Positions 7,545 through 45,385 of a stretch of 63,296 nt of DNA are shown here, piece by piece. Position 1 is the stretch's first letter. The number at the start of each line of letters is the position of its first letter. Made by a program: the position numbers and the translations under genes. This DNA is from a virus (Duplodnaviria; Caudoviricetes). The notes under the pieces were generated by a model. That model was not told where the DNA came from and made no database searches. It saw only the letters and a list, made by a program, of their open reading frames with translations. The stretch lies in IMG/VR virus record IMGVR_UViG_3300001242_000003, positions 1 to 63,296 of that record; one strand, given 5' to 3'.

Positions 7545-8728
7545 TGGCTTATTTTAGGCCTTATATCGATGAAACAGGCCTTCATATTCCTTCTTATTCA
7601 GATATTCGTGACGATTTAATTCAACAAGCAAAAAGTATTTATGGCCAAGATATATATTTGGGGGCTGATAGTCAAGATTATCAGCTTATTTCCGTAATAA
7701 GTATAAAAAGTTATGACACTATGCTCGCGCTTCAAGAAATATTTAACAGCAGGGGCCCTGGAACAGCTATTGGCTCTGCTTTGGATGGCATAGTTAAGAT
7801 AAATGGAATTTCAAGGGGAGTAGAAACTTTTTCTACGGCAATAGTAACCTTAACTGGAACGGCTGGTACTTTAATTTCAAATGGTATTGTTCAAGACAAT
7901 AGCGGATATAAGTGGAGCGTTCCTGAAGCTGTAATAGGACAAGATGGCACTATTTCGGTAATGGTAACTTGTCAACAAGCAGGGCCTATTTCAGTTATTC
8001 CAGGAGATATAACTAAAATAGTTACCCCTACTTATGGGTGGGCAACGGTATTGAATACGAGTTATGCTACTATTGGTAAATATAAAGAATCTGATTCAGA
8101 GCTAAGAGCTAGACAAGAGATTAGTACCGCTCAGGCAAGCAGAACGCTTTTAGAGGGGCTAAAAGGTTCACTGGCTAGTATATCCAGTGTTACTAGATCA
8201 GAAGTCTATGAAAATGACACAAGTGTTATAAATGCCAACGGACTACCGCCTCATAGCATAACTGCTGTTATTGAAGGCGGTTTGGATTATGATATAGCTC
8301 AGGCTATCTTCTTAAAGAAAGGTCCTGGGTGTTATACTAATGGGAGTGTTATTGTAGTTATAACTGATTTTTATGAACAACAAACGAATATAAGATTTTA
8401 TCGTCCAGTATATGTTGATGTTGACGTAACTGTTGATATTAAGCAATTGCCAGGATATAATTCTCAAACTACTTTGGATATACAGACGGCAATAAATGAT
8501 CTCTTAAATAGTGTTGGAATGGGCATAAAAAGTATTCCAATATCAAGCTTTTGGGGTTCAGTTTTATCAGTAATGACAAATTTAGCACAACCTACGTTCT
8601 CGGTATTATCTATTGTTGCAGCTAGGCATGGCCAGTCTCAAAGTACACAAGATATAAAGACATATTCGGTCGATGAAGCAATTAGGGGAAATATTTCATA
8701 TATTATAATTAATGCTAGTGAGGTGTAA
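7544..8728 (+). CDS. Baseplate J-like protein
   Basis: ESDSELRARQ, VYENDT...GLPPHSI.AVIEGG motifs. Confidence 0.85.
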   Translation: MAYFRPYIDETGLHIPSYSDIRDDLIQQAKSIYGQDIYLGADSQDYQLISVISIKSYDTMLALQEIFNSRGPGTAIGSALDGIVKINGISRGVETFSTAIVTLTGTAGTLISNGIVQDNSGYKWSVPEAVIGQDGTISVMVTCQQAGPISVIPGDITKIVTPTYGWATVLNTSYATIGKYKESDSELRARQEISTAQASRTLLEGLKGSLASISSVTRSEVYENDTSVINANGLPPHSITAVIEGGLDYDIAQAIFLKKGPGCYTNGSVIVVITDFYEQQTNIRFYRPVYVDVDVTVDIKQLPGYNSQTTLDIQTAINDLLNSVGMGIKSIPISSFWGSVLSVMTNLAQPTFSVLSIVAARHGQSQSTQDIKTYSVDEAIRGNISYIIINASEV

Positions 8729-8733
8729 TAATA

Positions 8734-9147
8734 GTGGCTGATATACATGTGTATAAAGGTGAAGTAACTAGCGGTGGAGTTGATGGAATTCTAGTATCTG
8801 AAGGAGGAGCTAATACTTCGCCAATTATTGTAGGGCCATTAAACGGAAATAATAATGAAGTTTCAGAAAGTTTGAAGTTAAGTATTCGCTGTGATCCGGA
8901 TTTTTTAACCATAGGAGAAACTTTAATTTCAATACTTGGTTTAACTGCTTCTAAGTGGGCTCTTGCTTTGGATAATGAAGGAGTTCCAGGCATTTTTAAA
9001 GAATATGGTGAAACTTTGGTTATACCAGGGATAATAACTGATGTAAACACTATTTTTTGGACTAAAGCTAAAAGCGATACATTTGATATTAAGCCAGATG
9101 ATTCATACGTGAGTTTTAATGTGCAAGCAGAAGTTAGAAAGGTGTGA
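8734..9147 (+). CDS. Hypothetical tail/baseplate protein
   Basis: ORF with GAGGTG RBS within the baseplate operon. Confidence 0.5.
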   Translation: MADIHVYKGEVTSGGVDGILVSEGGANTSPIIVGPLNGNNNEVSESLKLSIRCDPDFLTIGETLISILGLTASKWALALDNEGVPGIFKEYGETLVIPGIITDVNTIFWTKAKSDTFDIKPDDSYVSFNVQAEVRKV

Positions 9148-9153
9148 TCCTAA

Positions 9154-10881
9154 ATGGCAGATTTACATTATTATGTTAGTGTAACAAATGGAAACGATAC
9201 AAATGATGGTCTTACCGTAGCAACTGCTTGGAAAACATTAACTAAAGCAGCTATAACTGTACCGTCACCAATTGATGGTTTTAATAATTACGTGCATTTT
9301 GCACCAGGAGTATATAGGGAAAAGTTTATTCCTGCAAACAGCGGAGCAAGTGCAACATCTAAGATTATTTTTAAAGGTGATCCTAGATGTGTGCATTTTG
9401 TCAGTGAAATACAAGGCAAATGTAGGATTACTGGGACAGATGCACAGGAAATGCCAACTGCTGGAGCGGTATTAGACTGGATTGATAGAACGAACGTAGA
9501 ATTGTGTAATTGTCAAGTAGATGGTAGCCAAACTATTGGTTCTACTTCTACTTATGCTATTGCTAACATTTCAATTTGCAGAAATGTACTAGTAATTTCA
9601 GTGGGCGGTTTTAACAATTGCACTTGTTATGAGTGCAAAGCATTATGCTCTTATAAGGGTTTTTTTACCTGTGTAGCACATAATTGTGTAGTTATTAGTG
9701 GATCTTATGGTTTTGATGGTGGTTCACTATATGGCTGTATAAGCATTGGTAGCCCAGTTAATTTCCTTAGTTGTACAACGTATAATTGCTTGGCTATTAG
9801 TGGCTCTAATGCGTTTTATAATTGCGCAGCATATAATTGTATGATTGTTGGCAGTTCAGTTGCAGCACCAGGTGGTACAATGCATAACTGCAATATTATT
9901 AATTGTGATAGTCCAACTACTGGTGGCAGTAGTACAACAGGATGCAAATCAGCATATACTAGAGCTTCATTGACGTCAAATGTAACAGCTATGAAGCATA
10001 TAGATGTTGATATATTATTTTCAGCTATAGCTAACTTGTTAAATATTAACCCTAGTAGCTTGAATAGGGGTAATATGACATTAATAGTTTCTTCTCTTTC
10101 TATGTCAAATACTATTAATTTAACGGTAGAAAGAGATTTGATATTTACTCCTTCGCAAATAGGAGCTTGCTTAGGAGCTAGTATTTTAGTTGCATCAAAG
10201 ACAATAAGTGGGAATGTAACCGTAGCATTACAAAAATATATAGTAGATACCTGGACAACGCAAAAATCAAAAACACTTCCAGTTTCGTTACTAGACCTTA
10301 CGTCATATACATTTTTTGAATGGGATACAACAGCAGACATTGGTGACAATAATTTAACAACAGATGCAAATACTTGGAGAATAGCAATAACTGCTGATAT
10401 AGAAGCTAGTGCTACAACGCTTTATGGTGTTAATGCTACGACTCCAGGATGTATGGCAAATATCATACCTTCTTGGGGAAATTATGATGCTCTTGGCCAA
10501 CCCATTAAAACTTCAACAATAATTGGAGCCTACGATATTGCAATGGTAACACTGGATCAAACTCTTTATCATACAGATGCACCTTCGGTTAAAATTAATG
10601 GTTCTGGCGTTAAAACACTTAAATTGCCTGTCAAGAAAAATGTTCCAGTAACGGTTAGTTATTGGGTTAGGCATGACGGGGCGATTGCTGGCATGGAACC
10701 GATGTTGGTTTTAAGTGGCAACGATATTGAAGAAGTAGTCGATACTCATAGTGTAGGTGCTAATACTTGGGAACAATTATCAGTTAATATTACTCCTCCT
10801 GTTGATGATATATTGAATGTATCATTAATTGCTAGAGATTCAAGTAAAAATGCGTGGTTTAGCGATCCTACAGTAGTTTAA
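9154..10881 (+). CDS. Putative tail spike / receptor-binding protein with Cys-rich beta-helix repeats
   Basis: YYVS..NGND.NDG.T...AWKT start; repeated NC/xC beta-helix-like units; C-terminal carbohydrate-binding-like domain. Confidence 0.55.
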   Translation: MADLHYYVSVTNGNDTNDGLTVATAWKTLTKAAITVPSPIDGFNNYVHFAPGVYREKFIPANSGASATSKIIFKGDPRCVHFVSEIQGKCRITGTDAQEMPTAGAVLDWIDRTNVELCNCQVDGSQTIGSTSTYAIANISICRNVLVISVGGFNNCTCYECKALCSYKGFFTCVAHNCVVISGSYGFDGGSLYGCISIGSPVNFLSCTTYNCLAISGSNAFYNCAAYNCMIVGSSVAAPGGTMHNCNIINCDSPTTGGSSTTGCKSAYTRASLTSNVTAMKHIDVDILFSAIANLLNINPSSLNRGNMTLIVSSLSMSNTINLTVERDLIFTPSQIGACLGASILVASKTISGNVTVALQKYIVDTWTTQKSKTLPVSLLDLTSYTFFEWDTTADIGDNNLTTDANTWRIAITADIEASATTLYGVNATTPGCMANIIPSWGNYDALGQPIKTSTIIGAYDIAMVTLDQTLYHTDAPSVKINGSGVKTLKLPVKKNVPVTVSYWVRHDGAIAGMEPMLVLSGNDIEEVVDTHSVGANTWEQLSVNITPPVDDILNVSLIARDSSKNAWFSDPTVV

Positions 10882-14998: not shown

Positions 14999-17359
14999 GT
15001 GAATAGAGTGAAGTCAATTAAATTTAGTGATGTTGTTAAGGTAGTGTATCCTGAATATGTGTATTTTAAATTAACGCCTGACAATTCAGCAAGAAATAAT
15101 TCTACTTACAAAATAGCTAAAACGATTAGTTCATTGTATAAAAATATTTTGCATAATGTTAAACGGGAGCAAGCAAAGGTTATTAAATTAACTGGCATTA
15201 AAAAGGATTTTTTATTTGGTACGAAATATTCAATTATGTTAAATCATAAAACTTCTTATTATATATATATTGAAAAACAAAAAATTGAGTTTTATTTTAT
15301 AGTGCCTAGATATTGTTTAAGCGTTATGTCGGAAAAGCTTAATGATGTTTGGCCAAATATTACTATTAGTGAGGTAAAAGAAGTTCCTGCATTTAGTGAA
15401 AAAGCTACCAAGCACCAACTCTTTTATAATAAAGAGGACGGCTTGAGCTTATCAGTTGACCGTAGGGCAAATGAATTGCTGGAAAGTAATCTTAATATAG
15501 TAGATGTTTTACATGATGGTGATAAAGTTGGTATATTTTATAACTTTATGCCGATATCGCAGTTTGGTTGGAAAGCTCAGTATAGGTCGACATTAGAAAA
15601 AGTCTCTAAGAGCTTGCCTGTTGAGCGTAATAAGTTAGGGCTAAGTTACTTGCTCAAGTCAGCTTTTGCGCTTGTTTATGGGCTTCTGAATAGCCTTGGT
15701 GAAGCTTTTGCTGGTGCTACTCCGCACATGTTGACTAAAGGAAATGAATTATTGTTTTTAGAAACCTTAAAGCAATTTAATGATAGCAAGAAAGTTTCAG
15801 ATGCAACAATTAAGAAAGGAAATGATATAGTTTTAAATACTCAAATATTAGTGCTAAGTGAAAGTTCCGATGAGGTTAGACAATTAAACAATGCAAAAAG
15901 CTTAGCACAAAGTTTTGATGCAGTAACTGAAGATAACAGCTTGATTTATAAGCAAACTTATAAAGATTTTAAGCCATTAAGTTTTTCACTAGGAACCGAA
16001 ATAAATAAAGTAAGTTCAGTTGAATGCTCAAGCTTTATAGCTTTGCCTGGTAAGGAATTGTTAGAAAAGTATTCATGTATAAATAAAATAAAAACGCAGG
16101 AAACACAGGTACCGGAAGAGCTTCAACATGGTGTTATGTGTTTAGGAGTTAATACGTTTAAAGGCAACAAACAATTAGCTTATTTAAGTACAGATTTTGA
16201 TTACCAGATGTTAAGTTTAGTCTTAATTGGGCCTAACCGGGCAGGTAAATCAAAGTTTTTGGCTAATATAGCTAAGAATGCTATTGATGAAGGAGAATGT
16301 GTAATACTGCCGGACTTTATAGGAAGTTGCCAGCTTAGTTCAGAGATAGCTAGTTGTATTGACAAAAGTAAAGTCCTTGAAGTGTATTGTGATAACTGGG
16401 ATACTTTACAAGGGCTTGGTTTTAATGAAGTTCCGCATAGTAATAATCCGTTCGTGCAATATAAAAATGCTAAGGAACAAACTGCCTTATTAATGACCTT
16501 AGTGGATAGTATAAACTCAGATGATGCTAATTTCACAGCTAGAATGGGACGGTACTTTGAAGCTGCAAGTTTAGCAGTATTTTTATCAAATGGCAGTATA
16601 AAAGATGTATTCGCAGTATTAATGAATAACAATGTTAGACGTGAATTTATAAATAAAATACCAAGCTCCCAAAAGGAAAATATGAAGGAGTATATCGAAT
16701 ACCTTTTAGAACTAAATCATATCGAAAAAGGTGTAATAGTAGGTACTAAAATACATTTGATCACTGGAGCAGTTGATAGGCTGCAAAAACTTAAAGTGAA
16801 TGCTTACTTAGAGTTAATGCTTAAAAAGGGTACAAAAGGCAATATTAATTTAGTCAAGGAAATGCAAAAGAATCAGCTTATTGTGATTAAAATGCCACAG
16901 AGAATGTTTCTAACTGATAATGAAAAAGATGTATATGTAACATATTGGTTAACGAAATTGTGGCTTGCCTTACAAATACGTGAGGAGCAGGTAGGGAATA
17001 GAAACAAATTGATTAAGGTAAACATGATAATTGATGAACTTTATCAAGTAAACAACGCTGAAAAGTTTCTTACTAAGAAACTAAGCCAGCTTCCTAAATT
17101 TAACCTAAAACCTATAATAAGTTGCCATTACTTAAATCAAATTAGATTCATTAGAGAAGAATTAAGAAGCGCAAACGCCAGTTATATGCTGATTGCGGGG
17201 TGCGATAAAAAGAACTTTAGTGAACTACAAAGTGAGCTTTACCCGTATACAGAGAATGATTTGTTAAGTTTGCCACGTTACCACAGCTTAAATCTAATTA
17301 AGTGTAATGACGGATATGGAAAATTTATAACGCATTTGCCAAAGCCACTTTCAAAATAA
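14999..17359 (+). CDS. VirB4/VirD4/HerA-like P-loop ATPase
   Basis: Walker A GPNRAGKS, Walker B MIIDE, SCHYLNQ motif. Confidence 0.65.
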   Translation: MNRVKSIKFSDVVKVVYPEYVYFKLTPDNSARNNSTYKIAKTISSLYKNILHNVKREQAKVIKLTGIKKDFLFGTKYSIMLNHKTSYYIYIEKQKIEFYFIVPRYCLSVMSEKLNDVWPNITISEVKEVPAFSEKATKHQLFYNKEDGLSLSVDRRANELLESNLNIVDVLHDGDKVGIFYNFMPISQFGWKAQYRSTLEKVSKSLPVERNKLGLSYLLKSAFALVYGLLNSLGEAFAGATPHMLTKGNELLFLETLKQFNDSKKVSDATIKKGNDIVLNTQILVLSESSDEVRQLNNAKSLAQSFDAVTEDNSLIYKQTYKDFKPLSFSLGTEINKVSSVECSSFIALPGKELLEKYSCINKIKTQETQVPEELQHGVMCLGVNTFKGNKQLAYLSTDFDYQMLSLVLIGPNRAGKSKFLANIAKNAIDEGECVILPDFIGSCQLSSEIASCIDKSKVLEVYCDNWDTLQGLGFNEVPHSNNPFVQYKNAKEQTALLMTLVDSINSDDANFTARMGRYFEAASLAVFLSNGSIKDVFAVLMNNNVRREFINKIPSSQKENMKEYIEYLLELNHIEKGVIVGTKIHLITGAVDRLQKLKVNAYLELMLKKGTKGNINLVKEMQKNQLIVIKMPQRMFLTDNEKDVYVTYWLTKLWLALQIREEQVGNRNKLIKVNMIIDELYQVNNAEKFLTKKLSQLPKFNLKPIISCHYLNQIRFIREELRSANASYMLIAGCDKKNFSELQSELYPYTENDLLSLPRYHSLNLIKCNDGYGKFITHLPKPLSK

Positions 17360-18373: not shown

Positions 18374-19313
18374 AGAATTCAAGCCTGGCGGAAGAGAATT
18401 AGCTAAGGTATTGCATTACTTTGGATTATTGGAAGGGGACAATGAATTTAAAATAATTTGTCCGTTTCATGAAGATATTAATCCGAGTATGTTAATAAAT
18501 CTGAATTCTGGTACTTTTTATTGTTTTGGTTGTGGTTTAAGCGGAGACGCTTATAATTTTATTAGGCACTTATTTCCCAAGCTTGATGGCCTTAAATGTT
18601 TAAAGGTTTATTTTAGAATCCTAAAAAGCAATAAAGTCAAAAAGCTTAATTTTGTTCGCAAGAAAATGTACAAGCCTAAGTCTTCAGAAAAGCAAGCACT
18701 TATAGAAGCTGAAGACTTTTATTATGGTCTTAAAACTATTAACTGGTTAAAAGATCAAAGCTTGGAAAAACAATACATGCGCCAAAGAGGGTTTTTGCCT
18801 TCAGCATTAAATTTGTGCAAGGCAAAACTTACATATAAAGATAACTATCCATTAGTATTCCCGATGTTTGATATGGAAGTATTCAAAGGCTGGGTTTGTA
18901 GAACAACTACAAAAAGAATTGAACAACAAAGAAAATACCTTTACAATACAGGTTTTAGCCGCGCTAATACTTTAGTTGGGAAATATAATTCTGGAACAGT
19001 GGTATTAGTGGAAGGCTACATGGATTGGCTCAAATTTAAACAGTTTGGGGTAACTAATGTAGCTGCAATACTTGGTTGGAAGGTTACTGAACAGCAAATA
19101 ACAAAGTTAAAAACACTTGGCGTTGAAACAGTTGTTTCAGCGTTAGATAATGATTTTTGTGGTGATAAAGGCACAGCTTATCTTAAAAACTTTTTTAATG
19201 TAGTAAGATTTAAGTTTCCTCAAAATATAAAAGATCCTGGAGAGTTAACTAGGGCGCAGTTTAAGCAAGCAAAAGAGGAAACACAAAAATTAGTCAGGAG
19301 GATAAATAATTGA
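18330..19313 (+). CDS. DNA primase (CHC2 zinc finger + TOPRIM)
   Basis: CPFHED...CFGC; VEGYMD; LDNDFCG; KDPGE. Confidence 0.9.
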   Translation: MYSLMKEKKKVVPIEEFKPGGRELAKVLHYFGLLEGDNEFKIICPFHEDINPSMLINLNSGTFYCFGCGLSGDAYNFIRHLFPKLDGLKCLKVYFRILKSNKVKKLNFVRKKMYKPKSSEKQALIEAEDFYYGLKTINWLKDQSLEKQYMRQRGFLPSALNLCKAKLTYKDNYPLVFPMFDMEVFKGWVCRTTTKRIEQQRKYLYNTGFSRANTLVGKYNSGTVVLVEGYMDWLKFKQFGVTNVAAILGWKVTEQQITKLKTLGVETVVSALDNDFCGDKGTAYLKNFFNVVRFKFPQNIKDPGELTRAQFKQAKEETQKLVRRINN

Positions 19314-20197
19314 GTAGTTTAATAGATAACATCAAGGATCAGATTAAAAGATCTGGCGCTAATAAAGGCAAATTTTTATATTTTAAGCCTGGTGTGAAGG
19401 TAAGGATTAGGTTCCTTCAAGACCTGGATGACGGCATGAAAGTAAAATTTCATGATAGTTTTACGCTTGGTGTAAATGTACCATGCCAAGAAGTATTTGG
19501 CCGTGATTGTGATAAGTGCGAAATGGAAGGTTTAAGGCACCGGGACCAATATATTTGGTCAGTTTTTGACCATGACGCAAAAGAAACAAGATTTTTAATG
19601 GGAGCAGCAAATAATGCTTCACCCGTGCCAGCGCTTGTAGGAATGTATGAAGCTTATGGAACTTTGACTGATAGGGATTATGTTATAACCAAAATAGGTC
19701 AAGGTACTGCAACAACTTATCAAGTAGTACCAATGGATAAGGTTAAGTTCCGTAATGAAAAAGCTAAGCCATATAGCGAGAAAAAGACGTTGGAATTGCT
19801 TGATAAAGCTTTTCCGGATGAAGATAGAGATGATGAAGATGACAAACCAGCTAAAGGGAATAAAAAGCCAAGTAAATCAAATAAAAATAAAGAAACTGCT
19901 GATTATGATGATATGTCAGCTAAAGAATTGTATAGCCTTTGCCAGGAGCGTGATATTGCTTGTAAGCCAAGGAAAAGTGAAGATTATTATATTGAATTGC
20001 TTGAAGAATGGGACGAAGAGCAGAAAGAAGCGGATAGCGATGGTAAGGTAGATTATGAAGAGCTGTCTGCTAAAGAGTTGTACAAGCTTTGCCAAGAGCG
20101 AGATATTGAATGCAAGCCCAGAAAAAGTGAAGATTATTATATTGAGATTTTGGAGGAAGATGATGCTGAAAATGGCGGAGACAAGGATGATTGGTAA
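19310..20197 (+). CDS. Single-stranded DNA-binding protein with two tandem HeH/Rho-N-like repeats
   Basis: IRFL...HD...PC...C..C; DRDY.I.K.G.G..T.Y; duplicated YDDMSAKELY.LCQERDI.CKPRKSEDYYIE; acidic DDW tail. Confidence 0.7.
   Translation: MSSLIDNIKDQIKRSGANKGKFLYFKPGVKVRIRFLQDLDDGMKVKFHDSFTLGVNVPCQEVFGRDCDKCEMEGLRHRDQYIWSVFDHDAKETRFLMGAANNASPVPALVGMYEAYGTLTDRDYVITKIGQGTATTYQVVPMDKVKFRNEKAKPYSEKKTLELLDKAFPDEDRDDEDDKPAKGNKKPSKSNKNKETADYDDMSAKELYSLCQERDIACKPRKSEDYYIELLEEWDEEQKEADSDGKVDYEELSAKELYKLCQERDIECKPRKSEDYYIEILEEDDAENGGDKDDW
19901..20158 (+). repeat. Intragenic duplication (~108 bp x2: 19901-20008 and 20051-20158)
   Basis: Near-identical 36-aa units in the SSB. Confidence 0.85.
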
Positions 20198-20540
20198 AAA
20201 AAATGGATTAACTAATATTTTTAATCAGCAAGCTGCATTTCAAAAGCTTATAACTTCAATTGATTTGCCTAGCGATAATGTCGTTTGGTCATCGTATCAT
20301 ATTTTAGGACTTCAGGAAGAAATTGGCGAAGTGCTTAAAGCAGATAAACGCTGGAAAACTCATAGAAATGCAGCATATGATCCTGAAAACAAATTAGATG
20401 AAATAGTTGATTGTTTTATAACGCTTGTTAATATAGCTTTGTTTTCCGGGTTTGGTTCGCAAGAAATTTATAGTGCTATTGAAAATAAAATTAAAGAGAA
20501 TGTCGAAAGGTTGGATGATAGTGATGGAGAACAACAATAG
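20187..20540 (+). CDS. All-alpha NTP pyrophosphatase (MazG/dUTPase-2 like; putative dCTPase)
   Basis: EEIGEVL...WK.H...DEIVDCF motifs. Confidence 0.75.
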   Translation: MIGKKNGLTNIFNQQAAFQKLITSIDLPSDNVVWSSYHILGLQEEIGEVLKADKRWKTHRNAAYDPENKLDEIVDCFITLVNIALFSGFGSQEIYSAIENKIKENVERLDDSDGEQQ

Positions 20541-22305
20541 CGAAAAGTTTTATCTTGGTATTAGCTTAGGGTTTAATTCTTCGGCTTGCGTTATGTCAAA
20601 TAAACGTGGTTTGATAGCAGCTGTTTCACAAGAAAGGTTATGTGGAATTAAGAATACGAAAGAGTTCCCGGTTGATGCGATAATTGAATGCATCAAATTG
20701 GCTAAAGCTCCTTTTAGTTATAAATTTGATGTTGGTATAAGCCATTACCAGCATATAACAGCGGAAAATATTTACAAGTATCTGCCGGAAAAATATAAAG
20801 ATTATATGGGAACTTTTCATAATGTTTGTTTATTCGGCCTTGATTATGTTGAAGATTGCCTAAAAGCCTTGGCTTGCGTTTTAGTAAATTCAATAGTCAG
20901 GGTTGAACATCATACAGCTCATGCTTATGCAGCTTTAGTCATGCATGGCAAAGATGCAAATATGTCGGATGATAGAAATATATTTGTTACTTGTGATGGT
21001 TTTGGTGACGGAACCAGCGGAAGGATAGTGCTTGGCTCCGGTGAGGTGCTTGCTAGTTTAAGGCTAGTTGATAGCGTCGGATTGTTTTATCAGTTTGTAA
21101 CTGGAGCTTTGGGTTATAAAGAACATCAACATGAAGGTAAAATAACTGGCTTGGCTGCGTTTGGTAAGCCAATTTATGTAGAGAAGTTAGTCGAAGTATA
21201 TAGCCAAATGTTATCAGTCGATTTAAGTAAAGAGCAAAGCTCAGAGGTAAAAGCGAGTAATATTGAAAACTTTAATTTATTTTTACGCTTAAAAGATAGC
21301 ACTTATAAGCTAGTTAATTGCTTGCTTGGTAGCGGAGCATTGCCGGAGGATATTGCTGCTTCGGTTCAATTCTTTACTGAAATGGTAATAATTAATTGGC
21401 TTAATAGCACTATTGAAAAATACACTAAAAAAACTATTAATTTCCCTTTGTTTAATGTGTATTTTTCAGGCGGGCTTTTTGCAAATGTAAAACTTAATCA
21501 AAAGATTCATGCTTTACCTTGGGTTGAAAATATTTATGTATGTCCAGCAATGGGTGATGAAGGAACTTGTATTGGTGCAGCTTTTCACGCTATGAAAGAA
21601 AAAATAGGTATGGAAGTTATAGAAGCTAATAGCTTTCTAAAGCATCAGGTTAGCCCGTATCTGGGAACAAAGCATGAATATAGTGCAGAGCAAGTAATAT
21701 TGGAATTGGCTAATTTAAGAGCTTCTGAAAGTGTTTGTGTACATGAGCTTGAAGATGCACAACTTATTAATTGCATTGCTAAACATCTTACGAATAAGAA
21801 AATAGTTTGTTTATTCCGTGGCAGAATGGAATTTGGTCCAAGAGCGTTAGGTAATCGGTCAATACTTTATCATTGCACGGACCGAACAGTTAATATGTGG
21901 CTAAATGAACAACTTGGTAGAACTGAATTTATGCCGTTTGCTCCGATATGCAAAATGGAAAATGCTGGGGCTTTATTTGACAAAATTGGCGCTGAGCAAA
22001 CAGCGGAATATATGACAATAACATTTAATTGCTCAGATGAATTCAAAAATAACTATCCAGCAGCCTGTCATATAGATGGAACTGCCAGACCGCAGTTAGT
22101 AACGAAAGAAGCTAATAGATTTATGTGGAACTTATTGGACAAGTATGAGTCAATTTCATGTCAGAAAGTCCTAATTAATACTAGCTTTAATTTGCATAAT
22201 TTTCCTATCATTGAAAGCCCTGAGGATGCAATTCAAAGTTGGTTTGATTCAAATACTGATGTATTAGTAATAAATAATGTAGTCATAGAGAGGATGGTAA
22301 AGTAA
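20515..22305 (+). CDS. O-carbamoyltransferase (CmcH/NodU/TobZ family)
   Basis: EHHTAHA, DGFGD, EGKITGLA, GGLFANVKLN, EFGPRALGNRS, PFAP, HIDGTARPQ, NTSFN. Confidence 0.92.
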   Translation: MIVMENNNSEKFYLGISLGFNSSACVMSNKRGLIAAVSQERLCGIKNTKEFPVDAIIECIKLAKAPFSYKFDVGISHYQHITAENIYKYLPEKYKDYMGTFHNVCLFGLDYVEDCLKALACVLVNSIVRVEHHTAHAYAALVMHGKDANMSDDRNIFVTCDGFGDGTSGRIVLGSGEVLASLRLVDSVGLFYQFVTGALGYKEHQHEGKITGLAAFGKPIYVEKLVEVYSQMLSVDLSKEQSSEVKASNIENFNLFLRLKDSTYKLVNCLLGSGALPEDIAASVQFFTEMVIINWLNSTIEKYTKKTINFPLFNVYFSGGLFANVKLNQKIHALPWVENIYVCPAMGDEGTCIGAAFHAMKEKIGMEVIEANSFLKHQVSPYLGTKHEYSAEQVILELANLRASESVCVHELEDAQLINCIAKHLTNKKIVCLFRGRMEFGPRALGNRSILYHCTDRTVNMWLNEQLGRTEFMPFAPICKMENAGALFDKIGAEQTAEYMTITFNCSDEFKNNYPAACHIDGTARPQLVTKEANRFMWNLLDKYESISCQKVLINTSFNLHNFPIIESPEDAIQSWFDSNTDVLVINNVVIERMVK

Positions 22306-23820
22306 ATGCCGTATTTAAAAGTTAATTCAGTAACAGAAGCTTTTAGCTCGGTTGTTGCACTTTTGGAAGCAGAAGGTTTTGAAACTGCCCCTAGAGGAAT
22401 GAAAATAAAAGAAGTGCTTAATTGTTGTATTGAAGTAACTAATCCCCGGGATAGAATTGTACAAAATCCTGAAAGGCAAATGAATTTTTCTTACGCTGTT
22501 GGCGAATTGCTTTGGTATTTAAGCGGGCGCAATGATGTAGGTACTATGGAGTATTATTCAAAGAAAATGGCTAATTTTTCAGACGATGGTAAAACATTAA
22601 ATTCAGCTTATGGCCATAGAATTTTTGGTAATAATGCTAAGATTGGCTTTAACCAATGGGAACATGTAAAGCAACAGCTTATTGCCGATCCGGATTCACG
22701 GCAAGCAATAATTCATTTGCATACTCCAAATAACCAGAAAACAAAAGATGAAGTTTGCACGTTAAGCTTGCAATTTTTGCTCAGGCATGGTAAACTAAAT
22801 CTTATTGTTAATATGCGCTCAAATGATATTGTGCTTGGCTTTACGTACGATGCTTTTGCGTTTACTATGTTGCAGGAAATTATGGCAATTGAACTTGGCG
22901 TTGAATTAGGAAGCTACTTCCATAATGCTGGAAGTATGCACATGTATGAGCGTGATTTTAATACTTATAGTAAAATAACTTATAAAGTTAATTCAATGCC
23001 GATGTTGCCGCTGAACATGGTTTTAACGGATTTTGATCGCTTAATTGATTATGAAGCTTTTTGCAGGGATTTTAATAATAGTTTTAAAGAAGTAATTGAT
23101 TATACCACCTCAATGTTAGTTGCAAGTAAAAATAGTAATGAAAGAATATTTATGATTTCTTTAGCTATTTGGACAGTTATACGGCGCGGATATAGTTTCG
23201 CTTGTACTAAATATGTTAATAATTTTATTAATATAAGCCGCAGAATTGATGAGCGCTTTGCAGATATTCTTGCAGCAGGAAATAGTGTTTTTACTAAGAA
23301 CGATTTTAAAGTAATAATTGAAGGTGTAGATGCTAGTGGTAAAACATCTTTAGCGAACGCTTTAGCGCTTAATATTAATGGCTTAGCTTTATCAATACAG
23401 CATTATGACGCACCAACTAAAAACTTTGCTTTTTATTCAGCGTATAAAAGCGCCTTACAAAGTAAAGTTAGCACTATATTTGATAGGTTCTTTTTCTCAG
23501 AAATTGCCTATTCAAAAGCTATAGGCAAAGAATGCAGAATTAACGAAGTTAGGCAAAACTTGCTCTTAGGTATTATTTCAATATCTGGTTTTGTATGCGT
23601 TTTCTTTGTGTTTAATGACTTAGAGCTTGATTTGGTAATAAGCCGAATGGATGCTAAAGATTATGATAAATATGTTAAATCAGGGCTTATTTACAAAATT
23701 AATAGTGCTTACAAAGATCTTTGTGAAAGGGCTGAAAGGCATGGTTGCAAGGTGATAAAAGTAACTAAAGCTAATTATGATGTTGAACAAGTTATTGAGC
23801 AAATTAAAGGAGCTTTATAA
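22306..23820 (+). CDS. Thymidylate-synthase-family dCMP hydroxymethylase fused to dNMP kinase
   Basis: DSRQA, CT, MRSND...GFTYD (Asp at the base-specificity position), S.H.Y; C-terminal IIEGVDASGKT...FDRFFFSE. Confidence 0.8.
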   Translation: MPYLKVNSVTEAFSSVVALLEAEGFETAPRGMKIKEVLNCCIEVTNPRDRIVQNPERQMNFSYAVGELLWYLSGRNDVGTMEYYSKKMANFSDDGKTLNSAYGHRIFGNNAKIGFNQWEHVKQQLIADPDSRQAIIHLHTPNNQKTKDEVCTLSLQFLLRHGKLNLIVNMRSNDIVLGFTYDAFAFTMLQEIMAIELGVELGSYFHNAGSMHMYERDFNTYSKITYKVNSMPMLPLNMVLTDFDRLIDYEAFCRDFNNSFKEVIDYTTSMLVASKNSNERIFMISLAIWTVIRRGYSFACTKYVNNFINISRRIDERFADILAAGNSVFTKNDFKVIIEGVDASGKTSLANALALNINGLALSIQHYDAPTKNFAFYSAYKSALQSKVSTIFDRFFFSEIAYSKAIGKECRINEVRQNLLLGIISISGFVCVFFVFNDLELDLVISRMDAKDYDKYVKSGLIYKINSAYKDLCERAERHGCKVIKVTKANYDVEQVIEQIKGAL

Positions 23821-23822
23821 TT

Positions 23823-26510
23823 ATGTGGTTTGAACTGCATAAGCACACACATTTTAGTTTATTTGATGGATTTGGTCTTATAGGTGATGTTGTAAAGCGG
23901 GCTGTTGAATTGGACATGCCCGCTTTGGCGGTAACAGACCATGGAAATACCTGCGGATTAGCTAAACTATATTTCACTTGTAAAGACAAAGGTATTAAGC
24001 CAATACTCGGTGTAGAAGTTTATTTTCAGCCTAAGTTCAATAAAGAAAATAAAACTAATCATCTATGCTTATTTGCTAAGAATCAGCAAGGTTATTCTAA
24101 TATAATGAGGATAATAACTGAAGCAAATGAGGAAAATTTTTATTATAAAGGTATAGTAACCTTTGAGCTGTTAGAAAAGTATAATGAAGGTGTGATATGT
24201 TCTTCAGGTTGTTTAGCTGGCTTTATACCGCAAGCAATTTTAAATAATAATAAAGAGCTTGCGGTAAAAGCTATCAAGAAATTTAAAAGAATATTTGGTG
24301 AAGATTTTTACTTTGAAATAATGCCTATACCAGTTGATAAAGTAGGAACACAAGAGAAAGTTAATAAAATCATGTATAAACTTGGTGAAAGGTATAATAT
24401 TGGTTGTATACCAACGACTGATTCGCATTATACTAGAGCGGAGGATTTTCCATCGTATAAGGTGATGCATAAAATAGCTGGCACTAAGTATGATATAGAG
24501 CAAACATACAAAGACCGGTATATGCACAGTGAAGCCGAGATAAAGGAACGGCTTCATAACGAAGGATTTACTAAAAGTCAAGTAAGAAATATGCTCAATA
24601 ACATGGAAGAAATTTATAACAAAATAAACATTGAGCTTGACTTTTCAGAATCAATTCCAGTGCTTGGCAGTGGTGATTCGTATGAGCAACTTAAAGAGCG
24701 TTGCAAAGAAGCTCTTAAAAAGTATTTGAAAAAGCGCGGTTTAATGCATAAAAAACGTACATATTTAGACAGGTTGAGAACTGAACTAGAAGTTATTGAA
24801 TCGCACCACTTATCAGACTATTTTTTAATAGTAGCTGATTATGTAGATGAAGCTAAAAGACGTGATATATATGTTGGTCCTGGTAGGGGCTCAGTATGTG
24901 CTTCACTTATAGCTGATTTACTTGGTATAACAGATGTTGATCCAGTTGAAATCGGAAATGACTTTGCTAGATTTTTGCGCTTGGACAAAAAGAAAATGCC
25001 GGACATTGACTTGGATTTTGAATATGGCAAGCGTGATGAAATAACTGAATATTTGTTACAAAAGAATAAAGGAAACTCAGCGCAAGTTATTACTTTTGGA
25101 TTAAATCGTACTAAAAATCTTTGTAATGATTTGATAAAGGTGTTTGAAGTTTACGAAGATGATGCAGTTATTTTTCGTAAATATATTTCTAAGCATGTAG
25201 ATGATAATCGTCTTGTAAAAATGATGGACATTGATTATGAGGCGATACTTAAAGAGCCTGGAATGGCGCAAATAAATAAAAAGTATGACAATATAGTAAT
25301 CCATTTTTGTAAGCTGTATGGACAAATAAAGTATTATGGAACACATGCTGCTGGTGTAGTTATTACCAATGGACCAATTAAGAACTATATTTCCTTGGTA
25401 AAATACAAAGGTAAGTTGGCAACATGTTACGACAAGTTTGATTGTGAAGATCTTGGATTCTTAAAATTTGATATTCTCGGTTTAAAGACGCTAAATATTC
25501 TGCATGATATCGAGGAGCTTACGGGAGAACGATATGATTATAGGACAGCACCAGAAAGAACTAAAACTGCTATTTATGAAGGTTTTAGAACTGGTAAAAC
25601 TTCAGGTGTATTTCAATTAGGAAGCGGAACGGCTAAAGATATTTTAACCTCAATAGGCACGGATAATTTGCAGGATTTAATTGCAGCTATATCATTAAAT
25701 CGTCCAGGGCCTTTATCATTAACAATGCATGAAAAGTATGCAGAGAATAAATTAAATCCGCCTAAAGATTCCGCTTGGTATGAATATACGGCAGACACAA
25801 ATGGCACTTTAATTTACCAAGAACACGTTATGCAAATATGTAAAGGCCTTGCCGGATTGGACTATAATACGGCTGATAAAATATTCAAATGGCGCATGAC
25901 GGAAGAAGAAAGAAACAAAGTTTGTAATTTATTTGTAGAAGGAGCACACAAAGTTAGTGGAGTTGATAAGCAAGAAGCTCATGATTTATTCTATAGCATG
26001 TCAAGCTATTTGTTTAATAAAGGTCATGCTTCCGGCTATGCAGTAATTTCTGAATGGCATATGTACCACAAACTTTTTCATCCAACTGAATTTTGGTATG
26101 CCAGCATGAAGTATGAAATTGATGAGAAGAAGAAGTTTGAATTTCAGGCTGAAGCCGCTGCTGATGGTGTATTATTTTTCTTACCTCATGTAAATTATAC
26201 AGCTGATTATTCAATCCGCAAAGTTGAAGGCGAAAGTGTAGTTCAGCAAGGTTTGACTTCAATCAAAAACGTAGGTCAAAAAGCTGCTGAAACTATTGAA
26301 TATGAGCGCAGGCTTAATGGTTTTTATAAAAGCTATGATGACTTCTTGGATAGAGTTCCAAAGCGCCAAGTAAATTCAAGAGTAGTTGAATGTTTGCTCG
26401 AACAAGGTGCATTGGAATTTAACAAGAAAACTTATTTAAAGCGTACTATTAAATACAATTCTGTGCTATATATGAAAGGCCTTAGAGTTAAGAATAATTG
26501 TACTATATAG
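23823..26510 (+). CDS. dnaE: DNA polymerase III alpha subunit (family C)
   Basis: PHP HxHT..S..DG, TDHG, GPGRGS, PDIDLD, HAAGVVI, KFDILGL, FNKGHA. Confidence 0.95.
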   Translation: MWFELHKHTHFSLFDGFGLIGDVVKRAVELDMPALAVTDHGNTCGLAKLYFTCKDKGIKPILGVEVYFQPKFNKENKTNHLCLFAKNQQGYSNIMRIITEANEENFYYKGIVTFELLEKYNEGVICSSGCLAGFIPQAILNNNKELAVKAIKKFKRIFGEDFYFEIMPIPVDKVGTQEKVNKIMYKLGERYNIGCIPTTDSHYTRAEDFPSYKVMHKIAGTKYDIEQTYKDRYMHSEAEIKERLHNEGFTKSQVRNMLNNMEEIYNKINIELDFSESIPVLGSGDSYEQLKERCKEALKKYLKKRGLMHKKRTYLDRLRTELEVIESHHLSDYFLIVADYVDEAKRRDIYVGPGRGSVCASLIADLLGITDVDPVEIGNDFARFLRLDKKKMPDIDLDFEYGKRDEITEYLLQKNKGNSAQVITFGLNRTKNLCNDLIKVFEVYEDDAVIFRKYISKHVDDNRLVKMMDIDYEAILKEPGMAQINKKYDNIVIHFCKLYGQIKYYGTHAAGVVITNGPIKNYISLVKYKGKLATCYDKFDCEDLGFLKFDILGLKTLNILHDIEELTGERYDYRTAPERTKTAIYEGFRTGKTSGVFQLGSGTAKDILTSIGTDNLQDLIAAISLNRPGPLSLTMHEKYAENKLNPPKDSAWYEYTADTNGTLIYQEHVMQICKGLAGLDYNTADKIFKWRMTEEERNKVCNLFVEGAHKVSGVDKQEAHDLFYSMSSYLFNKGHASGYAVISEWHMYHKLFHPTEFWYASMKYEIDEKKKFEFQAEAAADGVLFFLPHVNYTADYSIRKVEGESVVQQGLTSIKNVGQKAAETIEYERRLNGFYKSYDDFLDRVPKRQVNSRVVECLLEQGALEFNKKTYLKRTIKYNSVLYMKGLRVKNNCTI

Positions 26511-31239: not shown

Positions 31240-31392
31240 ATGCCAGATAGAAGTTGTCATGGGTGGAAGCTTAAAGATAATTATGAGCCAAAGCCAATGG
31301 AAAAAGTTATCGCTAAATGTTGTGGTGTCTGCAAATATTATTGCCCTGTGTATTGTTGCAAACATCCTTTATATAAGCCATGCAAAGACTAA
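31240..31392 (+). CDS. Small Cys-rich protein (50 aa)
   Basis: AGGAGG RBS; CCGVCKYYC. Confidence 0.5.
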   Translation: MPDRSCHGWKLKDNYEPKPMEKVIAKCCGVCKYYCPVYCCKHPLYKPCKD

Positions 31393-32231
31393 CTACTATT
31401 ATCAATATAAACTTAACTAAGCAGCCGTATGACGTTTATATAGGCCGTGGAAGCTTGTTTGGTAATCCGTTTTATATAGGAGTCCATGGCAATCGTAAAG
31501 AAGTAATAGAGTTATACAAACAATACATACTAAATAGCCCTGAACTACTCAAAGCTGCTAAAGCACTAAAAGGAAAAGTATTAGGCTGCCATTGTAAACC
31601 TGCTCCCTGCCATGGTGATATACTTGTAAATATAGCGAATGGAGTTTTAAAAGTGTATAATAAATTAATTATTGGCATTGATCAAAGTTACACCCGTACC
31701 GGCATTGCTATAGCTGCTGATGGTAAGCTATTAAAGGTTAGTAGCTTAGCCTTCAAAGGCCTTCATAGCCCCACAGAGAAGCGTAAACATCTAACTAATG
31801 TACTAACCCGTATACTTGACCTTAACGCTCACAAGGCTTCTGAGTGCTATGTCATATGCGAGCGTATAAGAACTTTTTCACACAACAACAATGATAATAG
31901 TCAAAATCAAATGTTTATTAGCACTAATTATATTAAGTCAGCTGGCGCTTTAGTAGCTACTATTGTAGATGTTGCTAATAGTTATGGTGTTAAAGTTTAT
32001 AGCGCAGACACAAGAAGTTGGAAAGCTCAAATTGTTGGTACAAGTAAAGCCAGTCAGTCCGGTAACAAAAAACTTGCTACTATTAAGCATGTTATAAATT
32101 TAGGTTTTAGCTCCAGTGTTACCTCAGTTAACAGAAATGGTAAAACTGTTTATGACGATGATGCCTGCGACGCTGCTTGTATTGCTCTATATGGCTTCCA
32201 CAAGAACCAGAAGTTGAAAATAGAGAAGTAA
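31380..32231 (+). CDS. DUF4326 domain fused to RuvC-like nuclease
   Basis: DVYIGR.S.FGNPF...LGC.C.P.PCHGD; then IIGIDQS...ICE...DD.CDA. Confidence 0.75.
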   Translation: MQRLTTIININLTKQPYDVYIGRGSLFGNPFYIGVHGNRKEVIELYKQYILNSPELLKAAKALKGKVLGCHCKPAPCHGDILVNIANGVLKVYNKLIIGIDQSYTRTGIAIAADGKLLKVSSLAFKGLHSPTEKRKHLTNVLTRILDLNAHKASECYVICERIRTFSHNNNDNSQNQMFISTNYIKSAGALVATIVDVANSYGVKVYSADTRSWKAQIVGTSKASQSGNKKLATIKHVINLGFSSSVTSVNRNGKTVYDDDACDAACIALYGFHKNQKLKIEK

Positions 32232-40931: not shown

Positions 40932-41150
40932 TTGCCAAGGTTAACAGCTACCGGCATAATTAAACAAGCAATTAAGGAAGCTAGTTCAATTAATCCTGGT
41001 ATTATAAGTCTGCAGATTGAGGAAATAATGTGGGAGGAATTGAGTAAAACTCATGCCTATGTAAACAATAGCTTAGTGTTTACCAGATTAGCACGTCTTG
41101 GATTTAATAAGTTTTCAGATGTAAAGAAAATGGTCAAGAGGCTAGTTTAA
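40932..41150 (+). CDS. Hypothetical protein
   Basis: GGGTGA RBS; stop overlaps the next ATG. Confidence 0.5.
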   Translation: MPRLTATGIIKQAIKEASSINPGIISLQIEEIMWEELSKTHAYVNNSLVFTRLARLGFNKFSDVKKMVKRLV

Positions 41151-41680
41151 TGCAAAAGTATAATATTATTTATGCTGACCCACCGTGGGAATATAAAGAC
41201 AAAGCGCTTGCGGGAAACCGTGGCGCAGGTTGCAAATATAAAACAATGAAGATTAAGGACATTCAGGCTTTACCAGTACAAAATATGGCTGCTAGTAATT
41301 GTGTTTTGTTCATCTGGGTTACGTGGCCACATTTGCAAAACGGAATTAATACGCTTGAAGCTTGGGGTTTTGTCTGGGTAAAGAAAAACAAAAAGACTGA
41401 TTCATTATTTTGGGGTATGGGAAATTGGACTAGAAGTAATTCTGAGTTTTGTCTTATTGGGGTACGTGGCAAGCCAAAAAGAATTTCGTCTTCAGTTCAT
41501 TCAGTAGTTGTTGAACCGATAGGTAAGCACAGTGAAAAGCCAAATGAAGTTAGGCAGCGTATTGTAAAACTCATTGGTAATAAGCCGCGTATAGAATTGT
41601 TTGCCCGTGAAAAGTTTAAAGGTTGGCATGTATGGGGAAACGAAGTTGAATCAAGCATTGATATAGAAGATTATGAATAG
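41150..41680 (+). CDS. MT-A70 family N6-adenine DNA methyltransferase
   Basis: IYADPPW, LF.W.T.P, G.WTR.N.E, HS.KP, RIELFAR, W..WGNE. Confidence 0.9.
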   Translation: MQKYNIIYADPPWEYKDKALAGNRGAGCKYKTMKIKDIQALPVQNMAASNCVLFIWVTWPHLQNGINTLEAWGFVWVKKNKKTDSLFWGMGNWTRSNSEFCLIGVRGKPKRISSSVHSVVVEPIGKHSEKPNEVRQRIVKLIGNKPRIELFAREKFKGWHVWGNEVESSIDIEDYE

Positions 41681-42873: not shown

Positions 42874-43362
42874 ATGCGAATAGCTAATATAATCCAGTTA
42901 AGTGTAGTTGATGGGCCTGATATAAGGCTTCCTATATTTTTTCAAGGGTGCCAGCATAATTGCAAGGGTTGCCATAATCCTGATACACATAAAGTAGATG
43001 GTGGTTACGAAATAGATGTAAAATCATTAGCTAATATAGTTCTAATGTATTTAGATAATAACCCGCTAATAAAAGGTGTAACTTATACGGGTGGAGAGCC
43101 TTTATTGCAAGCGTATAATCTAGAAACATTAACTGATTTAATAAAAGAAGCAAAACCGGAAATCAACTTTATGCTATATACTGGTTTTATGCTTAAAGAT
43201 GCTTATGTGATTTACTATAGCTTAGTCAGCAAAATGGATTATGTAGTTGATGGAAGATATGTTGAAGAGCTTCGTGATATTAGCCTTAAATTTAGAGGAA
43301 GTTCTAACCAACGAATATATCAAAATGTTTTTGGCACGTTCGTAGATATAACGAATGCATAG
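42874..43362 (+). CDS. nrdG: Anaerobic ribonucleotide reductase activating enzyme (radical SAM)
   Basis: VDGP.IR..IFFQGCQHNCKGCHNP, GGEP, YTG, VDG.Y, FRGSSNQR. Confidence 0.9.
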   Translation: MRIANIIQLSVVDGPDIRLPIFFQGCQHNCKGCHNPDTHKVDGGYEIDVKSLANIVLMYLDNNPLIKGVTYTGGEPLLQAYNLETLTDLIKEAKPEINFMLYTGFMLKDAYVIYYSLVSKMDYVVDGRYVEELRDISLKFRGSSNQRIYQNVFGTFVDITNA

Positions 43363-44851: not shown

Positions 44852-45385
44852 ATGCAAAATGTTATTATTAGTCCTAAATGGTTTTTTGATCCCAATGGTC
44901 CTCATGGTATTGCACATACAAAACGCGTAATGATACTAGCTGAAACCATAGCTATAATGTACGGTTGCAATAAGCCAGAAATACAGATACTTAGAAAAGC
45001 AGCAGCTTACCATGATATTGGTAGGGAAAATAATGAAGTAGATGAAAAGCATGGATTTAAGAGCGTAAATAAGGCAATAAAGTTAAAGCTTTTAAACCCA
45101 CATGATTCAGAAATTGATGATATAGCAACTGTTTTAATTCATGAACATTCTTTATCAGATTTAGAAAATTTGCCTGATTCTATTACTGTGAAGTTACTTA
45201 ATATTTTCAAAGATGCAGATGCTTTGGATAGAGTAAGGTTTGGTGATAAAGATTGCGGCCTTAACACTAAATATTTAAGAATGGGGCATGCTAAGCAACT
45301 AATTGGATTTGCTAAGATGTTGTTAGTGCAAATGCCTGAAGTAGTGAAGTCAACAGCATTAGAATATTTGTTTAGTAAAAAGTAG
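44852..45385 (+). CDS. HD-domain phosphohydrolase
   Basis: HG..H..RV, YHDIGR, HG, EH, DADALDR. Confidence 0.85.
   Translation: MQNVIISPKWFFDPNGPHGIAHTKRVMILAETIAIMYGCNKPEIQILRKAAAYHDIGRENNEVDEKHGFKSVNKAIKLKLLNPHDSEIDDIATVLIHEHSLSDLENLPDSITVKLLNIFKDADALDRVRFGDKDCGLNTKYLRMGHAKQLIGFAKMLLVQMPEVVKSTALEYLFSKK

Follow-up and report, generated by a model that had tools for sequence, protein, structure and literature searches.

In phage T4, deoxycytidine is re-routed step by step by gp56 (a dCTPase), gp42 (the dCMP hydroxymethylase), gp1 (a dNMP kinase), cd and td, and the hydroxymethylated base is decorated by alpha- and beta-glucosyltransferases. A chemistry in which the decorating group is a carbamoyl was described in 2021, when Yang et al. 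(eLife 2021; PMC8670742) expressed one carbamoyltransferase (CT) from a sewage contig; this enzyme, which requires carbamoyl phosphate and ATP, acts on 5-hydroxymethylcytosine (5hmC). The sequence analyzed here is the 63,296-bp virus record IMGVR_UViG_3300001242_000003 (Duplodnaviria; Caudoviricetes), referred to at its full length as the window, and the system in question is a four-gene cluster at 20187-26510 on the + strand, encoding in order a MazG-like pyrophosphatase, a CT, a 504-aa fusion protein and a DnaE-type DNA polymerase. An earlier note had read this cluster as a cytosine hypermodification operon, and the core of that reading is supported by diagnostic residues, trees, a fused kinase-like domain, the linkage of the CT clade and the published gene set. 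It is probable that the virus re-routes deoxycytidine much as T4 does, with carbamoyl in the place of glucose, and the predicted product is DNA containing 5-carbamoyloxymethylcytosine. The system is of the kind described in 2021, with hydroxymethylation and phosphorylation fused in one protein here.

Described systems

The characterised CT converted 5-hydroxymethyldeoxycytidine (5hmdC) in single-stranded DNA (ssDNA) almost completely and about 60% of 5hmdCTP, and was active on RNA too; it was inactive on 5-methyl-dCTP (5mdCTP) and 5-hydroxymethyl-dUTP (5hmdUTP) (PMC8670742). The differential residues named for 5hmC CTs are those at W408, G421 and R423 of TobZ, and CTs are described as co-occurring with thymidylate synthase (TS), PRA-PH and dCMP-deaminase domains only in contigs enriched in modified cytosine (PMC8670742). 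In that paper, which defined 5-carbamoyloxymethylcytosine, the base is described solely as what a single metagenomic enzyme produced in vitro (PMC8670742). A literature search on this base found no phage in whose virion DNA it had been demonstrated, and a search on the modification found no report of the DNA chemistry of Xanthomonas phage Xp15, Acinetobacter phage HHU4, Bacteroides phage BF486P2 and their relatives.

The window has the published CT neighbourhood, namely a TS homologue with Asp at position 177 (Escherichia coli ThyA numbering, used throughout for such positions), a MazG/PRA-PH-type gene and a dCMP deaminase, and it shares with the 2021 route the Pfam architecture of the CT and the predicted chemistry. 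It differs in that the hydroxymethylase is fused to a kinase, the module lies in a DnaE-type replication operon and the CT belongs to a different clade from those of Xp15, HHU4 and BF486P2. In these cultured phages, the CT adjoins a P-loop or PRA-PH gene, and the modules include a TS homologue with D143, T147 and D177, as well as a dCMP deaminase match or annotation in HHU4 and Xp15; their polymerases differ from that of the window, and the hydroxymethylase-kinase fusion is absent from them. BF486P2 has two TS-like genes next to its CT, and one of these (gene 00027, 8513-9274 of locus L003) has Leu aligned at the catalytic Glu58 and keeps D143, C146 and D177.

Compared with T4, the stepwise logic is the same, and gp42 has all catalytic and specificity residues in common with the hydroxymethylase of the window. 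However, the decorating enzyme here is a CT rather than a glucosyltransferase, and the hydroxymethylase is nearer to MilA than to gp42. The pyrophosphatase and the kinase of the window are MazG-like and dTMP-kinase-like, and we take T4 gp56 and gp1 to belong to other families. MilA, the CMP 5-hydroxymethylase of mildiomycin biosynthesis (PDB 5b6d, 5jnh), is the best match in both sequence and fold, including a C-terminal helical region, but has no kinase domain.

The hydroxymethylase-like domain

The fusion open reading frame (22306-23820) encodes 504 residues, of which 56-243 match Thymidylat_synt (PF00303) at 2.7e-27; a Thymidylate_kin match is sub-threshold. The translation contains NMRSNDIVLGFTYDAF, the last D of which corresponds in the alignment to Asn177 in E. 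coli ThyA and to Asp179 in T4 gp42, so that the motif RSND..LGFTYD, with Asp where dUMP-specific enzymes have Asn, is as the earlier note had it. The alignment references were E. coli ThyA, T4 gp42, SPO1 gp29, the Xp12 dCMP methylase, the second TS gene of the window and TS homologues from related loci. Asp at N177 denotes dCMP as the substrate (PMC8670742; PMC13326640). An acidic residue at L143 (Asp145 in T4) marks enzymes that form a hydroxymethyl group (PMC13326640; PMC6400193); the T4 residue activates water, and its replacement in D145N abolishes formation of 5-hydroxymethyl-dCMP (5hm-dCMP) (PMC6400193). The 5-hydroxy-dCMP synthases, a recent discovery, are recognized by Asn at D169 (PMC13326640). 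Enzymes specific for deoxyribose are distinguished by Ser167 and Arg126, where MilA has Ala and Lys (PMC5175136).

All of these positions can be read in the fusion. Its key residues, with the E. coli equivalents in brackets, are E67 (E58), S100 (S94 in T4), Y102 (Y94), R132 (R126), D148 (L143), C151 (C146), T152 (H147), S172 (S167), D174 (D169), D182 (N177), H212 (H207) and Y214 (Y209); R166 is likewise kept, and the differences from ThyA are L143D, H147T and N177D. The catalytic residues of the ThyA fold are thus present as C151 (C148 in T4) and E67 (E60 in T4), and the Ser-x-Tyr water site of T4 (S94, Y96) as S100 and Y102. S172 and R132 are the deoxyribose-type residues (Ser167, Arg126'), where MilA has Ala176 and Lys133, which favour the ribonucleotide. 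In 35 aligned fusions, D148, C151, T152, D174 and D182 are invariant. The comparison enzymes also follow the rules: SPO1 gp29 has D143 and N177, the Xp12 enzyme has N143 and D177, and both E. coli ThyA and the second TS of the window have L143 and N177.

Other identities for the domain were considered and set aside. It is not a canonical ThyA, as positions 143 and 177 are both Asp instead of hydrophobic and Asn, respectively, and it is not a 5-hydroxy-dCMP synthase of the RB69 gp48 type, as it keeps Asp (D174) at D169. A dCMP methyltransferase of the Xp12 type has N143 and P147 where the fusion has D143 and T147, and a branch with 100/98 support divides the two, a comparison that depends on one characterised methylase. 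A maximum-likelihood tree was built from 26 TS-fold proteins, and the program warned that several of its branches are long. In this tree, the domain shares a clade with T4 gp42 and SPO1 gp29 (100/98 support), to which neither of the ThyA proteins (E. coli and window) nor the Xp12 methylase belongs.

Structural comparison points in the same direction as the residues. The best PDB sequence match of the synthase-like domain is MilA (6e-41), with T4 gp42 at 2e-13. The AF2 model of the fusion (pLDDT 93.5, pTM 0.91) has helices at residues 240-325, and Foldseek aligns 319-335 of its columns with MilA, at a target TM of 0.82-0.85. Because the MilA match extends over residues 240-325, this helical region belongs to the MilA-type hydroxymethylase and is no simple linker. 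Every published signature of a T4-type dCMP hydroxymethylase is present in the domain, and those of thymidylate synthases, dCMP methylases and 5-hydroxy-dCMP synthases are all missing. Its assignment as a dCMP- and deoxyribose-specific 5hm-dCMP synthase is well supported by sequence, and is the best-supported step of the predicted pathway.

The fused kinase-like domain

The C-terminal part of the fusion matches PHROG 761 (thymidylate kinase) at 7.5e-12 and, at 2e-4, the PDB thymidylate kinase 3ld9; in the latter match, both the P-loop and the nucleotide-monophosphate motif DRFxxSxxAY are aligned. Among the 35 aligned fusions, G340, G345, K346, R394, S398, E399 and Y402 are invariant and D393 is nearly so. 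The fusion is common in metagenomes: among the matches listed, 85 of the 119 non-self proteins are 461-551 aa long, and of these 85 listed proteins, 24 have a precomputed PF02223 match, and in 83 the alignment covers 79% or more of the query. A homologous kinase is a separate gene in eight other contigs, directly upstream of the hydroxymethylase in five of them. That the kinase is split in some contigs and fused in others argues for a shared pathway, and it is proposed that the fused domain converts 5hm-dCMP to 5hm-dCDP. A full-text literature search found no paper describing a hydroxymethylase-kinase fusion, a result that does not disprove the existence of one.

The carbamoyltransferase

The CT is a full-length member of its family, with Carbam_trans_N (Kae1-like, 5e-26) and Carbam_trans_C (YrdC-like, 1.5e-53) domains, and its PDB sequence matches are 7xb6, GdmN and NovN (approximately 1e-44) and TobZ (7e-23). 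The motif residues H129, H130, H133 and D158 are invariant in 20 sequences, and are presumably equivalent to the metal ligands of TobZ. The protein has thousands of metagenomic relatives, the closest of them 51% identical.

It is the genes around these CTs that suggest their acceptor. A CT profile found 24 IMG/VR loci, 14 of which have a TS-like gene in the available sequence, with D143, C146, T147 and D177 in every case (14/14). The window-type CT clade comprises 17 loci, including all 14 with a TS-like gene; the remaining three (L014, L018 and L019) have only 0.1-2.6 kb of sequence downstream of the CT. Loci L022-L028 form a distinct CT group with no nearby TS-like gene, and the six of them included in the tree (L022-L027) nest among cellular enzymes. 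At 80 cellular CT loci (the closest cellular relatives, 27-39% identity), no TS, kinase, MazG or deaminase match was found within 6 kb. In a quick tree of 57 CTs, which used 30 of the 80 cellular loci, the window-type viral CTs form a virus-only clade of 18 rows (93% SH-aLRT), and the cultured-phage CTs of Xp15, HHU4 and BF486P2 form a separate clade on a long branch. Both TS-linked viral clades together can form one side of a branch with 99% SH-aLRT support, which is compatible with one origin of TS-linked viral CTs without establishing it. Two short motifs of the characterised CT had no match in the 36 loci and 120 proteins collected; after a protein search seeded with the Xp15 CT, one of the motifs had a single match among 360 proteins, to P0352, which is not the characterised enzyme. 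By its linkage and by analogy with the characterised enzyme, the CT of the window is a putative 5hmC O-carbamoyltransferase.

An exchangeable slot in related phages

Additional evidence comes from relatives that lack a CT at the corresponding place. The IMG/VR contig L141 (1863-9658) has the same backbone of primase, SSB-like protein, MazG-like protein, hydroxymethylase (D143/T147/D177), DnaE and RecA. In its CT slot, a gene for a P-loop kinase is accompanied by genes for a radical-SAM protein, for a UDP-galactopyranose mutase (GLF, 1e-25) and for an unknown protein of 374 aa; the virus probably makes a galactofuranosyl-type decoration of 5hmC. The hydroxymethylase of L141 was at one point considered to have Asn143, which would have made it a natural control without a CT, but its true motif is KDIPCT and it is an ordinary enzyme of this kind.

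The nearest cultured relative by DnaE (44.6% identity) is the Agathobaculum phage AB434P2 (L033:1314-8307), which shares the primase, SSB, MazG, hydroxymethylase, DnaE and RecA backbone. Its Asp177 hydroxymethylase is flanked by a cytidylyltransferase-like gene, a gene with weak similarity to choline kinases and two unknown genes with products of 328 and 361 aa; it has no CT. It may be that this isolated gut phage makes a different, undescribed 5hmC derivative. As the contents of the slot vary on a common backbone, the slot would appear to hold the set of enzymes that decorates the hydroxymethyl group, which supports the role assigned to the CT. With sugar-route or cytidylyl-transfer genes in the slot of its relatives, the lineage would constitute a natural series of exchangeable 5hmC decorations.

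Organization of the cluster and the other pathway genes

The four genes are contiguous and tightly packed, and the reading-frame coordinates and Pfam domains agree in this with the earlier note. The first two genes overlap by 17 nt, the second and third abut with a gap of 0 nt, and 2 nt separate the third from the DnaE gene. The gene order MazG, CT, fusion, DnaE is found again in five other IMG/VR contigs at protein identities of 30-68%, which indicates conserved synteny and not a chance juxtaposition. The description of the cluster as an operon agrees with this spacing; however, a scan for promoter and terminator consensus sequences found 67 sites in comparison to 65.6 expected from shuffles, with no enrichment. 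The idea of a single operon is therefore based on gene spacing, and no claim is made about transcripts. The features are collected in Table 1.

Table 1. Cluster genes and domains, further pathway genes and gene blocks of the window
Feature	Position	Strand	Basis
MazG-like all-alpha NTP pyrophosphohydrolase, 117 aa	20187-20540	+	PF08761, PHROG 173
NodU/CmcH/TobZ-family O-carbamoyltransferase, 593 aa	20524-22305	+	Pfam, PDB sequence matches, clade
dCMP hydroxymethylase core (fusion residues 1-235)	22306-23010	+	Pfam, key residues, PDB match, tree
Helical region of fusion (~residues 236-329)	23011-23292	+	Common to MilA-type hydroxymethylases
dTMP-kinase-like P-loop NMP kinase domain (~residues 330-504)	23293-23820	+	PHROG 761, TIGR00041, PDB 3ld9
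DnaE-type DNA polymerase III alpha, phage replicase, 895 aa	23823-26510	+	Pfam PHP, DNA_pol3_alpha, finger, HHH_6
dCMP deaminase, 139 aa	28235-28654	+	dCMP_cyt_deam_1 9e-16; PHROG 174 5.5e-39
Canonical ThyA, second TS-fold gene, 276 aa	36758-37588	+	Thymidylat_synt 2.5e-87; L143, C146, N177
Baseplate, tail and lysis genes	1-14 kb
Replication and nucleotide-metabolism block	15-40 kb
Terminase, portal and head genes	40-55 kb

The MazG-like protein matches PHROG 173 (NTP pyrophosphohydrolase) at 3.6e-8, and six orthologues all retain E45/E48 and E72/D75, the residues of its EExxE and ExxD metal motifs. A sequence-only PDB search gave chance-level matches only. The AF2 model is moderate (pLDDT 73.8), and its best Foldseek matches are YpjD, the mouse and human dCTPase DCTPP1, iMazG and the S-2L MazG-like protein, with TM values of 0.5-0.6.

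The earlier note had also counted DnaE among the cluster genes as the polymerase that would take up the modified nucleotide. The gene does adjoin the fusion, and its Pfam domains are those of a polymerase III alpha; orthologues (41-64% identity) lie downstream of the module in six related contigs. The CT and hydroxymethylase module also occurs, however, in phages with other annotated polymerases, or with no DnaE found in the available sequence, so the adjacency says nothing specific. It is lineage synteny and not a pathway requirement, and DnaE is simply the replicase of this lineage.

Two genes farther downstream are relevant to the supply of pyrimidines. Orthologues of the dCMP deaminase (57-64% identity) lie directly after the CT in seven other contigs; at these identities, it is the best-conserved gene of the module. 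The second TS-fold gene groups with E. coli ThyA in the 26-protein tree (99/98 support) and has the canonical L143 and N177, which implies that the phage makes its own dTMP. No dihydrofolate reductase gene was found in the genome.

Genome context and other genes

The record is complete, with direct terminal repeats, approximately 35% G+C and nearly all genes on the + strand. Near-identical sequence is present in 16 public runs from nine studies, labelled as groundwater or soil metagenomes, in all cases as contigs, and four of these runs are possible sources of the DNA analyzed here. There is no megablast match of the genome among 50,697 GenBank phage records.

Directly upstream of the cluster is a gene for an SSB-like protein (19310-20197; PHROG 1607, 1.7e-11), which overlaps the pyrophosphatase gene by 11 nt. 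Its acidic C-terminal part contains a motif of approximately 45 residues twice in tandem (…AKELY.LCQERDI.CKPRKSEDYYIE.LEE…). The replication block is headed by a 786-aa P-loop protein (14999-17359) that matches only PHROG 5156 (unknown function, 4.6e-85) and has no Pfam match. Within the same block, at 31380-32231, a DUF4326 domain (1.6e-23) is fused to a RuvC-like Holliday-junction resolvase domain (PHROG 159, 1.8e-11).

Several other genes have possible links to nucleotide or DNA chemistry. An MT-A70-family methyltransferase is encoded at 41150-41680 (5.6e-29); we take this family to be N6-adenine methyltransferases, in which case the genome would encode a second DNA modification, one directed at adenine. 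A radical-SAM gene at 42874-43362 was considered as an indication of deazaguanine modification, but the encoded protein is an NrdG-like activase (PHROG 626, 7e-40) and not QueE; such an activase hints at an anaerobic host. An HD-domain phosphohydrolase (44852-45385, 1e-9) could be a further nucleotide-pool enzyme.

Proposed pathway and alternative explanations

In the pathway proposed here, the MazG-like pyrophosphatase would hydrolyse dCTP to dCMP and keep dCTP out of DNA, a role suggested by the T4 precedent and the published co-occurrence. The N-terminal domain of the fusion would use methylene-tetrahydrofolate to convert dCMP to 5hm-dCMP, the Asp three residues before the catalytic Cys activating water and the Asp at Asn177 selecting cytosine. 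The dTMP-kinase-like domain would then phosphorylate this product, as its fold and motifs suggest, a host NDP kinase would generate 5hm-dCTP, and the phage DnaE would incorporate the modified nucleotide. With carbamoyl phosphate and ATP, the CT would carbamoylate the 5-hydroxymethyl oxygen, either on the nucleotide or on newly made DNA, to yield 5-carbamoyloxymethylcytosine; gene linkage and the one characterised relative point to this step. The dCMP deaminase and ThyA are proposed to complete the T4-like scheme by supplying dTMP from the dCMP pool (dCMP to dUMP).

Several observations weigh against this pathway. The genome is known only as contigs from short-read groundwater metagenomes. Its CT has only 25-29% identity with the CTs of the cultured phages Xp15, HHU4 and BF486P2, and scores better against cellular natural-product CTs (approximately 1e-44) than against the Xp15 CT (2e-25). 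The one characterised 5hmC CT resembles the Xp15/BF486P2 type, a likeness judged by eye only. The transfer of function to the CT of the window thus rests on gene linkage, and the statement of the earlier note that phage CTs of such loci have been shown to carbamoylate 5hmC holds for one enzyme in vitro, which by eye belongs to the Xp15/BF486P2-type clade and not to that of the window. The TIGR00041 match of the kinase domain (2.5e-8, 33.9 bits) falls below the curated cut-off of 83.25; the motifs are kept, and the domain is best described as a superfamily member and not as a dTMP kinase equivalog. The MazG-like assignment is marginal, with PF08761 (dUTPase_2) at 3.4e-5 and 24.6 bits against a cut-off of 22.9, and the Foldseek E values of 0.04-0.1 are weak, though nearly all of the top matches belong to the superfamily.

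The stage at which the carbamoyl is added divides the proposed pathway itself. In a fully pre-replicative version, which follows the order of steps in the earlier note, the CT would carbamoylate 5hm-dCMP or 5hm-dCTP, and DnaE would incorporate 5-carbamoyloxymethyl-dCTP. The position of the CT gene between those for the pyrophosphatase and the hydroxymethylase-kinase, overlapping or abutting both, is in keeping with this, as is the conversion of approximately 60% of 5hmdCTP by the characterised CT, whose authors raise the pre-replicative possibility (PMC8670742). However, the same enzyme converted an ssDNA oligonucleotide almost completely (PMC8670742), and for most hypermodified pyrimidines the group is transferred onto a hydroxyl that DNA already contains (PMC13326640). 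The slot that holds the CT here also carries sugar-route genes in related phages. The sugar-route genes of T4 act on DNA. The balance leans slightly toward carbamoylation of DNA rather than of the nucleotide, and the pre-replicative version is possible but doubtful. Somewhat more speculative is the idea of an assembly line at the nucleotide level, in which the fusion and the CT would supply DnaE with finished 5-carbamoyloxymethyl-dCTP and the hypermodified base would be complete before replication begins; the CT clade of the window, other than that of the one characterised enzyme, would then be specialised for free nucleotides.

Other explanations would change the product. It may be that the phage makes 5hmC DNA but uses its CT in auxiliary metabolism, on an acceptor other than a nucleic acid, as has been assumed for cyanophage CTs. 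The 148 phage records with a CT match are mostly from cyanophages, the viral CTs of L022-L027 are of cellular affinity, and the best PDB scores of the window's CT are to natural-product CTs; yet its gene overlaps or abuts nucleotide-metabolism genes within a replication module, and the association of its clade with Asp177 hydroxymethylases in 14 of 14 assessable loci, as opposed to none of 80 cellular relatives, makes such a role unlikely. A deaminase acting on 5hm-dCMP could instead turn part or all of the modified pool into 5-hydroxymethyl-dUMP, and so lead to a thymine-side modification in DNA. Deaminases from cytosine-modified viral contigs gave 5-hydroxymethyldeoxyuridine (5hmdU) in vivo, one of them preferring 5-methylcytosine (5mC) and 5hmC (bioRxiv 10.1101/2024.12.05.627091), and the strong conservation of the deaminase in this module (57-64% identity) would suit that role. 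Against this, the phage has its own canonical ThyA, with which the ordinary route from dCMP through dUMP to dTMP is complete, and 5hmdUTP was not used by the characterised CT (PMC8670742); a thymine-side product is very unlikely. Hardest of all to credit is that the synthase-like domain makes thymidylate, 5-hydroxymethyl-dUMP, 5-methyl-dCMP or 5-hydroxy-dCMP. All of these activities do occur in the same fold, and the closest cultured-phage matches include dUMP hydroxymethylases of the SPO1 type. However, the domain has Asp at 177, where SPO1 gp29 and ThyA have Asn, Asp at 143, where ThyA has Leu and Xp12 has Asn, and at 169 it keeps Asp instead of the Asn of 5-hydroxy-dCMP synthases; ThyA and Xp12 lie apart from it in the tree, and the anaerobic host at which the NrdG-like gene hints would be ill-suited to an O2-dependent hydroxylase.

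Implications

On the reading preferred here, T4-like re-routing of deoxycytidine with a carbamoyl group instead of glucose, the whole predicted 5-carbamoyloxymethylcytosine pathway is carried by a complete 63-kb genome with terminal repeats. The fusion and the CT together offer a compact two-gene construct with which to ask whether this clade makes 5-carbamoyloxymethyldeoxycytidine (5cmdC), and at which stage. For the phage, DNA modified in this manner should resist restriction enzymes and other nucleases that read cytosine.

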